From a phage, in sequence record OR846149.1: DNA of 1,250 nucleotides; one strand, given 5' to 3'. This document shows, in pieces, positions 1 to 1,250 of the stretch (positions within the stretch are counted from its first letter, which is position 1; the number at the start of each line of letters is the position of its first letter). The translations under genes and the position numbers were made by a program. The notes beneath the pieces were generated by a model, which made no database searches, had not been told where the DNA came from, and saw only the letters and a program-made list of their open reading frames with translations.

Positions 1-1250
1 GGTATTAATTACAATAACATGCTGTTAAGTAAAGTGTGCTGTGATGATTTTTCTGTTTCTTGGGATCCTGATTGGCCCAAATACGATCAATATCAAGCAC
101 TAGCGCCGTTTAATGAGCATGGTTCTTTGCAGGCAGGACTTGCAGCATTTGGGAATTTGATGGATGTCGTATTAGGAAATAGCGCTATCCAACTATCACA
201 TGTTATTGAGTCAGCAAGAATTTTACCTCCGCAAGGCAACAATGATCCCTTTTTATATGGGGCTATAACGGTAGGAACAGCATCCAAACTTGAAGTAGAT
301 AGGCCAGATATAAATAGAGTATATAGCCTTGCTGTTACGTCTGATCACGAAAGAGAAAGTGGCAGACCTTCTTCATGGTCTGCAGAAATTGATCAATTCA
401 CTTCTGGTATGCAAGATGGAAAGCGGAGACTTTTTGTTATTTCTGCCGGTAACAACTTAGATATTCGTCCTGACCAAGACTATTGGGATCAAGTCAATCT
501 CGCGCAGATAGAAGATCCAGCTCAAGCATGGAATGCTATTACTGTTGGGGCATATACAGAAATGACCACAAATGATGATCCATATTTTGAAGGTTGGTCA
601 CCATTCGCAATGGCGGGTGATGTTGCTCCATCAAGTCGTTCTTCGGTGAATTGGGCGTGGAGAAAGCAAGCACCATTTAAGCCAGATGTAGTTGCCGAAG
701 GTGGTAATCGACTTTTGTCACCTGATAAGACTGAACTCAGTAATGAAGATACTGTTGGATTATTAACAACATCAGGAAAAACTACCGGTCAGGTTTTTGA
801 GCGGGGTAGTGATACAAGCGCTGCGTGTGCGTTAGTCTCGAGATGTGCGGCTCAGTTAACAGCCGAGTATCCTGAACTTTGGCCCGAGACTATACGAGGT
901 TTGATAATTCACTCTGCGGAGTGGACTCCACGAATGATGGAACGATTTGGTTTATTAAGTGCAGTACATAGTCCTAAAGTAGCAAAAGAAACATTATTGC
1001 GTACGGTTGGGTATGGTGTAACAAACATTGACAGAGCTAGATATAGTGCTGACCATGCGCTTACTTTGATCGCTGAAGGCGAAATTCAGCCATTTATCAA
1101 ATCCCAAGATGCTAATGCGTCATCTGATCCTAAACTAAATCAAATGAAACTTTATCAGTTACCTTGGCCTCTCGCGGAATTGCAAAATTTGCCGCCAGAG
1201 TTAGAAGTTAAACTCAAAGTTACTTTATCTTACTTCATAGAACCTAATCC
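1..1250 (+). CDS. Partial (5'- and 3'-truncated) subtilisin-like serine peptidase, S8 family, with a C-terminal extension
   Basis: Manual frame +1 translation gives 416 codons with no stop, beginning GINYNNMLLSKVCCDDFSVSWDPDWPKYDQYQALAPFNEHGSLQAGLAAFGNLMDVVLGNSAIQLSHVIESARILPPQGNNDPFLYGAITVGTASKLEVDRPDINRVYSLAVTSDHERESGRPSSWSAEIDQFTSGMQDGKRRLFVISAGNNLDIRPDQDYWDQVNLAQIEDPAQAWNAITVGAYTEMTTNDDPYFEGWSPFAMAGDVAPSSRSSVNWAWRKQAPFKPDVVAEGGNRLLSPDKTELSNEDTVGLLTTSGKTTGQVFERGSDTSAACALVSRCAAQLTAEYPELWPETIRGLIIHSAEWTPRMMERFGLLSAVHSPKVAKETLLRTVGYGVTNIDRARYSADHALTLIAEGEIQPFIKSQDANASSDPKLNQMKLYQLPWPLAELQNLPPELEVKLKVTLSYFIEPN. It carries the S8 signature motifs in canonical order (His, oxyanion Asn, KPD-x-x-A-x-G, Ser, terminal GYG-x-x-N). 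No Shine-Dalgarno sequence precedes the first in-frame ATG (nt 19-21), and the frame is open from nt 1, so the start is upstream; the stop is downstream of nt 1250. Confidence 0.85.
118..147 (+). other. S8 catalytic His motif (H-G-S-L-Q-A-G-L-A-A; His = codon 40, nt 118-120)
   Basis: Translated HGSLQAGLAA fits the subtilase His-box pattern H-G-[ST]-x-x-A-G-x-x-A-A (compare HGTHVAGTVAA in subtilisin BPN'). It lies about 111 residues upstream of the oxyanion Asn, compatible with S8 spacing plus a modest insertion. Confidence 0.7.
436..462 (+). other. S8 oxyanion-hole Asn motif (V-I-S-A-G-N-N-L-D; Asn = codon 151, nt 451-453)
   Basis: Hydrophobic strand followed by A-G-N matches the subtilase VVAAAGN(E/D)G box that carries the oxyanion-hole Asn (Asn155 in subtilisin BPN'). 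Confidence 0.7.
679..708 (+). other. Conserved subtilase K-P-D-[IV]-x-A-x-G motif variant (K-P-D-V-V-A-E-G-G-N)
   Basis: Matches the (K/E)PD(I/V)xAPG(V)xI segment that precedes the Ser box in S8 peptidases; here Pro is replaced by Glu. Its position between the Asn box and the Ser box is as expected. Confidence 0.6.
805..840 (+). other. S8 catalytic Ser motif (G-S-D-T-S-A-A-C-A-L-V-S; Ser = codon 273, nt 817-819, codon AGC)
   Basis: D-T-S-A-A-C-A-L-V-S-R-C-A-A-Q-L aligns with the subtilase Ser box G-T-S-[MF]-A-[AS]-P-x-V-[AS]-G-x-A-A-L. The nucleophile Ser sits in T-S-A-A, followed about 65 residues later by the domain-terminal GYGVTNIDRA (compare GKGLINVQAA in subtilisin). Confidence 0.75.
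1048..1250 (+). other. C-terminal extension beyond the S8 catalytic domain (continues past the window); function unknown
   Basis: The S8 fold normally ends shortly after the G-[YK]-G-x-x-N-x-x-x-A segment (here nt 1009-1038). The reading frame stays open for at least 68 more codons (DHALTLIAEGEIQPFIKSQDANASSDPKLNQMKLYQLPWPLAELQNLPPELEVKLKVTLSYFIEPN) with alternating hydrophobic/polar runs (EVKLKVTLSYFIEP) suggestive of beta strands. I recognise no motif in it. Confidence 0.5.

Follow-up and report, generated by a model that had tools for sequence, protein, structure and literature searches.

The question raised by the stretch of 1,250 nucleotides analyzed here (the window) is which protein its one long reading frame belongs to, and whether that protein serves phage defence, the maintenance of a mobile element or an unrelated secreted or housekeeping function. 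Frame +1 contains no stop in its 416 codons, leaving all 1250 bases of the window open, both other forward frames are riddled with stops, and the longest ORF lying wholly inside the window comprises 64 aa. Scans of the window for Rfam families, tRNAs and repeats were all empty. The initial annotation recognized in this frame a part of a large S8 peptidase and suggested that it is the protease component of a two-gene ATPase-subtilase module similar to Iet, or of a related system.

In database comparisons, identity to the window reaches 99.9% in OX345320.1 (locus L001), a 20.4-kb linear contig of Salmonella enterica that has been deposited as a plasmid, and likewise in a locus on a Providencia chromosome (L008), which differs from the window in 1 of 1250 bases. 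Genomes of Rheinheimera and Thorsellia carry sequences with 98.6-98.9% identity to the window, and a megablast search against 5,426 complete E. coli genomes returned no match to it. The connection to a named gene is provided by primers designed for Salmonella Genomic Island 1 (SGI1), which are listed with their AF261825 coordinates in Supplementary Table 1 of PMC5006074. Four of these primers match the Salmonella contig exactly and in colinear order, with the AF261825 position equal to 24078 minus the L001 position for all four, and the start primers of S026 and S025 have exact matches in the Providencia locus, which brings the total to six SGI1 primers or primer cores with exact matches in the two loci. 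These matches and the mapping therefore place the window within ORF S025, at the AF261825 coordinates and codons given in Table 1. S026 and S025 (sgiAT) have been described by Huguet et al. in 2016 as a toxin-antitoxin pair of SGI1 (PMC5006074). With a probability of about 95%, the window is a part of sgiT (S025), a gene for a cytoplasmic, subtilisin-like serine protease that acts as the toxin in sgiAT, a type II toxin-antitoxin operon of SGI1 and the SGI1 homologue of ietAS of the Ti plasmid pTiC58. The locus shares with the published operon the 847-aa ORF, the 20-bp spacing after sgiA, resG and IntI1 upstream and S024/S023 downstream, and differs from it in nothing of substance: a single synonymous base separates the window, which spans only an internal part of the gene, from the two best-matching records.

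Table 1. Features of the window (positions count from its first base; residue numbers are those of full-length SgiT unless stated otherwise)
Feature	Position	Strand	Evidence
Internal segment of sgiT (SGI1 ORF S025), codons 287-702 of 847	1..1250	+	Open frame, 99.9% DNA identity, SGI1 primer matches
Segment corresponding to AF261825 24034-22785 (minus strand of AF261825)	1..1250	+	Primer mapping
Peptidase S8 catalytic domain, from just after the catalytic Asp to the domain end	1..1017	+	Pfam PF00082, 210 bits, window residues 1-339, model positions 12-288 of 288
CAT codon, catalytic His326, motif N-E-H-G-S-L-Q-A-G	118..120	+	Sequence; invariant in 29/29 full-length relatives
AAC codon, oxyanion-hole Asn437, motif S-A-G-N	451..453	+	Sequence; invariant in 29/29
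Synonymous C/T in the Phe codon 202 of the window, sole difference from Salmonella L001 and Providencia L008	606..606	+	Sequence comparison
AGC codon, nucleophile Ser559, divergent Ser box S-D-T-S-A-A-C-A	817..819	+	Sequence; S559, A560 and A561 invariant in 29/29
Start of the conserved C-terminal domain, residues 626-702 of 626-847	1018..1250	+	Beyond the Pfam S8 match; conservation
Motif V-T-L-S-Y-F-x-x-P-N, residues V693-N702, ending the window	1219..1248	+	Invariant

The window encodes most of the S8 catalytic domain and the start of a conserved C-terminal domain, and Peptidase_S8 is the sole domain found by Pfam on full-length SgiT. The catalytic residues were assigned from the Pfam-aligned motifs and from their invariance, because a pairwise local alignment with subtilisin BPN' gave a spurious result; the alignment used to measure conservation comprised 29 full-length relatives with identities down to 41%. 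Only the His, Asn and Ser of the catalytic set lie within the window, and the catalytic Asp285 (in the motif LDTG), invariant in 29/29 relatives, is found two codons upstream. The complete set of Asp, His and Ser together with the oxyanion Asn is thus intact in SgiT, as is characteristic of the IetAS family. The sequence features on which the initial annotation relied are all confirmed. The serine box that it called divergent reads G-S-D-T-S-A-A-C-A, as opposed to the canonical G-T-S-M-A, with the T-S-A-A core containing Ser559 invariant in 29/29 relatives; the insertions that it noted are reflected in the 347 residues (279-625) that the S8 domain of SgiT spreads over 285 Pfam model positions; and the large size is borne out by the full ORF of 847 aa seen in the near-identical Providencia copy. 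The AT-leaning composition that it remarked on applies to the window (GC 41.8%, GC3 28%) and to the whole sgiAT operon, with a GC content of 39% compared to 45-47% in the neighboring island backbone and 53% on the integron side.

The C-terminal module noted at the outset was recovered as well, in the form of 77 residues of the window (340-416) that fall outside the Pfam domain and open a region of 222 residues. Among the 29 relatives, the mean identity to the reference is 0.67 in this region and 0.68 in the catalytic domain, and its invariant motifs include VTLSYFxxPNP and PxxGWW. SgiT itself was absent from the results of a search in a large protein index, where the best match was 86% identical; the AlphaFold2 model of an 86%-identical homologue (P0001) is confident (pLDDT 87.4, pTM 0.91), and in this model the C-terminal domain is predicted to be mainly beta-stranded and to follow the subtilase core. 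A fold search identified KP-43, Tk-SP, SubHal, Kex2 and furin, all subtilases with C-terminal beta domains, as the closest solved structures, at 11-17% identity. The matches of this search in the PDB were generic subtilases, with no IetS- or SgiT-type structure among them, and a sequence search of the PDB yielded no relative at E <= 0.001.

The partner gene and the flanks were read beyond the ends of the window from near-identical copies, primarily the Providencia locus, in which the gene order is IntI1 (class 1 integron integrase), the resolvase gene resG (S027), sgiA, sgiT, GajA and GajB. The co-oriented AAA+ ATPase gene that a two-gene module implies was found there: sgiA (S026), encoding a 329-aa AAA+ ATPase, lies 20 bp upstream of sgiT on the same strand, the spacing also given in PMC5006074. 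The defence genes and integrases that would mark an island are likewise present, with Gabija directly downstream and the resolvase and integron integrase upstream, in a mobile island. Specifically, ORFs of 645 aa and then 553 aa (S024/S023) begin 65 bp downstream of sgiT on the same strand, and they are assigned as a complete Gabija system because the GajA and GajB models of PADLOC match them with 1102 and 906 bits. This downstream half of the context is also found in the Salmonella contig. The UvrD-type helicase encoded downstream of sgiT belongs to Gabija.

The founding ietAS pair of pTiC58 (Yamamoto et al. 2009), located at NC_003065.3, positions 97873-98859 and 98863-101373, keeps the gene order of sgiAT, with only a few bases between its two genes, and encodes proteins of 328 and 836 aa, compared with 329 and 847 aa for SgiA and SgiT. 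SgiT and pTiC58 IetS share 36% identity across 829 aa (E 1e-160), and SgiA and IetA share 50% across 325 aa (E 3e-110), in agreement with the values published by Huguet et al. (PMC5006074); the window alone is 42% identical to IetS over 397 aa. The match of the proteases runs colinearly from the N-terminal through the S8 to the C-terminal region and takes in nearly all of both proteins. As related in PMC5006074 and PMC13069673, the roles are also divided as in sgiAT, with the protease of pTiC58 acting as toxin and its ATPase as antitoxin. In contrast to sgiAT, which belongs to an integrative mobilizable island, ietAS stabilizes a plasmid, and the sequences are divergent. The pairing of the two genes is widely conserved: an AAA gene homologous to sgiA is located directly upstream and on the same strand in 35 of the 36 related loci from species-representative genomes, and the AAA-S8 pair also occurs in all 5 other loci (L003-L007), which comprise a Burkholderia plasmid, an Agrobacterium plasmid and three metagenome or run-assembly contigs. 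Genes of the sgiT family were found in 466 plasmid records, 325 of them conjugative.

The kinship with the anti-phage systems of this family is more distant. IetAS/IteAS (Gao et al. 2020; NF042959/NF042956) shares with sgiAT an AAA+ ATPase and an S8 protease of ~750-850 aa with N- and C-terminal extensions. On the PADLOC models, SgiA scores 262 bits against IetA, almost end to end, with TRIP13 as the next family at 45 bits, whereas SgiT scores 83.6 bits (E 2e-24) against the best IetS model, covering 65% of it. Both proteins miss the equivalog cutoffs of NCBIfam, SgiT with 38.2 bits versus 900 for IteS and SgiA with 213.8 versus 510 for IteA. Judged by these scores, the SGI1 pair belongs to the same superfamily as the phage-tested IteS and IteA and is not an equivalog of them. 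The ietHAS system described in 2026 shares the ietAS core with sgiAT but includes an additional SNF2 helicase essential for defence, and such a gene is absent from the SGI1 operon (PMC13069673). The pair TA132/133 from a Mollicutes chromosome (Mycoplasma), which resembles sgiAT in its architecture, consists of a 353-aa ATPase encoded upstream of a 757-aa S8 toxin; it is a functional toxin-antitoxin pair in E. coli, where the subtilisin-like toxin causes filamentation (PMC8562856). Taken at the level of sequence, the Iet-like module proposed in the initial annotation is supported by the partner ATPase, the homology to IetS and IetA, the conserved pairing, the island context and the lack of a signal peptide.

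The gene is already known, named and experimentally characterized, and its partner, its toxin-antitoxin behavior and its kinship with ietAS were all published in 2016; software for the detection of defence systems already annotates the pair as ietAS. Expression of S025 decreases transformation and viability of E. coli 100- to 1000-fold within 30 minutes, co-expression of S026 (SgiA) abolishes this toxicity, and deletion of sgiAT destabilizes SGI1 when an IncA/C helper plasmid triggers its excision (PMC5006074). Expressed from its own promoter, sgiAT produced no post-segregational killing on a test plasmid (PMC5006074), so that the classic addiction model is only partly demonstrated. In Salmonella, the operon shows strong constitutive expression and is not SOS-regulated (PMC9927553). 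In the wider ietAS family, the protease activity is required for protection against phage, and IetA acts as the antitoxin (PMC13069673). The role shown experimentally for sgiAT is toxin-antitoxin stabilization of SGI1; activity against phage is documented in other family members only.

A mechanism can be proposed on this basis. SgiA has recognizable Walker A (GSPGTGKT) and Walker B (LFDEFD) motifs, and its best matches outside the Iet family are proteasomal, FtsH and Cdc48 unfoldases; we infer that it is a classical-clade AAA+ protein closest to these three groups. SgiA probably keeps SgiT inactive by holding or remodeling it, and depends on ATP to do so. If SgiA were lost, outcompeted or inhibited, upon loss of the island or possibly upon phage infection, the 847-aa protease would be freed and would cleave one or more essential host proteins, so that growth would stop. 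The conserved N- and C-terminal domains of SgiT are likely to be the regulatory or substrate-selecting parts of the enzyme.

Among the alternatives, the one that fares best assigns to sgiAT the main role of abortive-infection phage defence (Iet sensu Gao et al. 2020), instead of island addiction, and regards it together with the adjacent Gabija as a two-system defence islet. This reading concerns the role of the pair, not its identity, and is compatible with toxin-antitoxin behavior. It is a serious contender that falls somewhat short of an even chance. The pair is matched by the PADLOC IetA and IetS models, the full GajA/GajB pair lies close downstream in the same orientation, and in a PADLOC survey both ietAS and Gabija were called on one contig of S. 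Typhimurium that is associated with SGI1 (PMC9958689). In Vreelandella, a related AAA-S8 pair adjoins a Gabija pair of 74-76% identity in a different arrangement and orientation, related islands couple sgiAT with Abi_2 genes (PMC8409611), and the neighborhoods of other homologues include BREX-type and HEPN genes. Members of the ietAS family that protect against phage depend on the protease activity to do so (PMC13069673). However, the phenotype demonstrated for sgiAT is retention of the island (PMC5006074), both proteins score far under the cutoffs for the phage-tested type, the ietAS system of ECOR52 alone confers only limited protection, and no phage experiment on the SGI1 pair was found in the literature searched.

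Tentatively, and with the odds leaning against it, sgiAT may also be an abortive-infection defence that works together with Gabija S024/S023, in which the AAA+ antitoxin would be the point where phage infection releases the protease. SGI1 is a clinically important resistance island; if this were the case, the spread of multidrug resistance by this island in Salmonella and Proteus would bring with it a cassette of two anti-phage systems, and protection of SGI1 carriers from phage by sgiAT and Gabija would bear on phage-based control of Salmonella.

It is improbable that the source genome holds only a remnant of sgiT that has lost its 5' end or been inactivated in some other way, as could be the case in an SGI1 variant with part of its backbone deleted. 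Such a remnant would fit with the frequency of IS26-mediated backbone deletions among SGI1 variants, with the start of the matching Salmonella contig within S025, 43 bases before the first base of the window, and with the shortened or interrupted frames of several relatives (L003, L011, L026, L036 and L038). Against it, 416/416 codons of the window are open, a single synonymous base is all that separates the window from the intact Providencia copy, and the contig starts with in-frame S025 sequence without an insertion-sequence end. Most of the related loci have intact open frames of 824-855 codons. An IS-mediated truncation as the cause of the contig start was considered and rejected, given that S025 runs undisturbed and in frame through the first 43 bases of the contig; the contig break is uninformative.

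The N-terminus of SgiT, read from the Providencia copy, bears on secretion, which would have argued against a role in defence. It begins with MVSKRKHLDVARFF and is basic and hydrophilic; no signal peptide or hydrophobic segment was detected in SgiT, with a maximal 19-residue hydropathy of 1.25, and the Pfam scan found no propeptide domain of the I9 type on the protein. Pfam PF27160 (Y4kK_N), precomputed on some of the homologues, was not detected on the N-terminus of SgiT with the copy of Pfam used. From this basic and hydrophilic character of the N-termini, and from the lack of any 19-residue segment above that hydropathy value, it follows that SgiT is cytoplasmic and not secreted, and the argument from secretion against a defence role fails. 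A secreted or housekeeping subtilase, or a LanP-type lantibiotic leader peptidase, without an ATPase partner, which has only the generic S8 fold and the distant likeness to secreted subtilases and proprotein convertases in its favor, is refuted, with a vanishingly small residual chance, by the lack of a signal peptide, propeptide domain or hydrophobic segment, the obligate upstream AAA+ partner of sgiT-type genes, the toxicity of S025 expressed in the cytoplasm (PMC5006074) and the position of sgiT between a resolvase gene and Gabija in a mobile island. The value of the present analysis lies in a clean identification, in which the inference made from the letters alone is confirmed and a secreted protease is ruled out; as a discovery it carries little weight.

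As for the occurrence of the window in phage material, its sole match in the phage collection is an unverified contig of 1.6 kb from a preparation of an S. Kentucky phage, which is probably host DNA, and the allele of the window at position 606 is also present in the S. Kentucky-associated contig L002.

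The genes S024 and S023 of Salmonella Genomic Island 1 (SGI1), the first to follow the protease gene sgiT (S025) and co-oriented with it, together constitute a complete Gabija system. Their products score 1102 bits (GajA) and 906 bits (GajB) against the PADLOC models, and the stop of the gajA gene overlaps the start of gajB. Gabija has already been reported on an SGI1-linked contig in a PADLOC survey (PMC9958689), and the two genes are still drawn as genes of unknown function in the SGI1 literature examined.

A second Gabija pair was found in Vreelandella nanhaiensis (L029), with GajA and GajB 76% and 74% identical to those of SGI1, beside an AAA ATPase-S8 protease (AAA-S8) pair whose protease is 66% identical. 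Since Gabija adjoins AAA-S8 genes in both SGI1 and L029, in differing arrangements, the association is possibly a recurrent one, and the shared neighborhood hints at this. The surroundings of more distant AAA-S8 pairs, on L005 and L007, hold further defense-type genes.

Features neighboring sgiT and related AAA-S8 pairs
Feature	Locus and coordinates	Strand	Position
Gabija pair S024/S023	L001:1795-5390; L008:11752-15344	as sgiT	65 bp downstream of sgiT
Second Gabija pair	L029:4010-9132	opposite to AAA-S8 pair	directly upstream of AAA-S8 pair
BrxC/PglY-like ATPase and AAA_15/DUF3696 protein	L005:1-4779		near AAA-S8 pair
DEAD/DEAH helicase and HEPN protein	L007:8993-13206		near AAA-S8 pair
Recombinase clusters, prophage-like	L004		near AAA-S8 pair

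The sgiAT operon, comprising the AAA+ ATPase gene sgiA and sgiT, has a GC content of 39% (8133-11686 of the Providencia chromosomal locus L008), compared with 45-47% in the adjoining SGI1 backbone and 53% on the integron side, and looks like a cassette of distinct composition even inside SGI1. Among the relatives, the protease frames are shortened or interrupted in L003 (2245-4787), L011, L026, L036 and L038; in L003, a break sets the N-terminal 125 codons apart from the remaining frame, and in L038 the open frame comprises just 308 codons and is not preceded by an AAA gene. These broken frames may represent toxin pseudogenes or assembly errors.

SgiT itself was not returned from a search of a 5.8-billion-protein index, in which the top match was 86% identical, although sequenced Salmonella and Proteus commonly carry SGI1; its absence is a gap in the content of the index or in its word-based candidate step.

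The 1591-bp OR851626.1, deposited as an unverified phage sequence (“Salmonella phage S.Kent 1-2-1”), is 100% identical to sgiT over positions 604-1250 of the window, sharing the C at position 606, and then runs into GajA; most likely, the sequence stems not from a phage but from the SGI1 of the S. Kentucky host, whose DNA came along with the lysate. OX345320.1 (L001), a 20.4-kb linear record labeled “plasmid: 134”, begins inside S025 and, across the part of S025-S024 to which the primers match, is colinear with the SGI1 backbone; the assembly pipeline has probably mislabeled a piece of a chromosomal island as a plasmid here.
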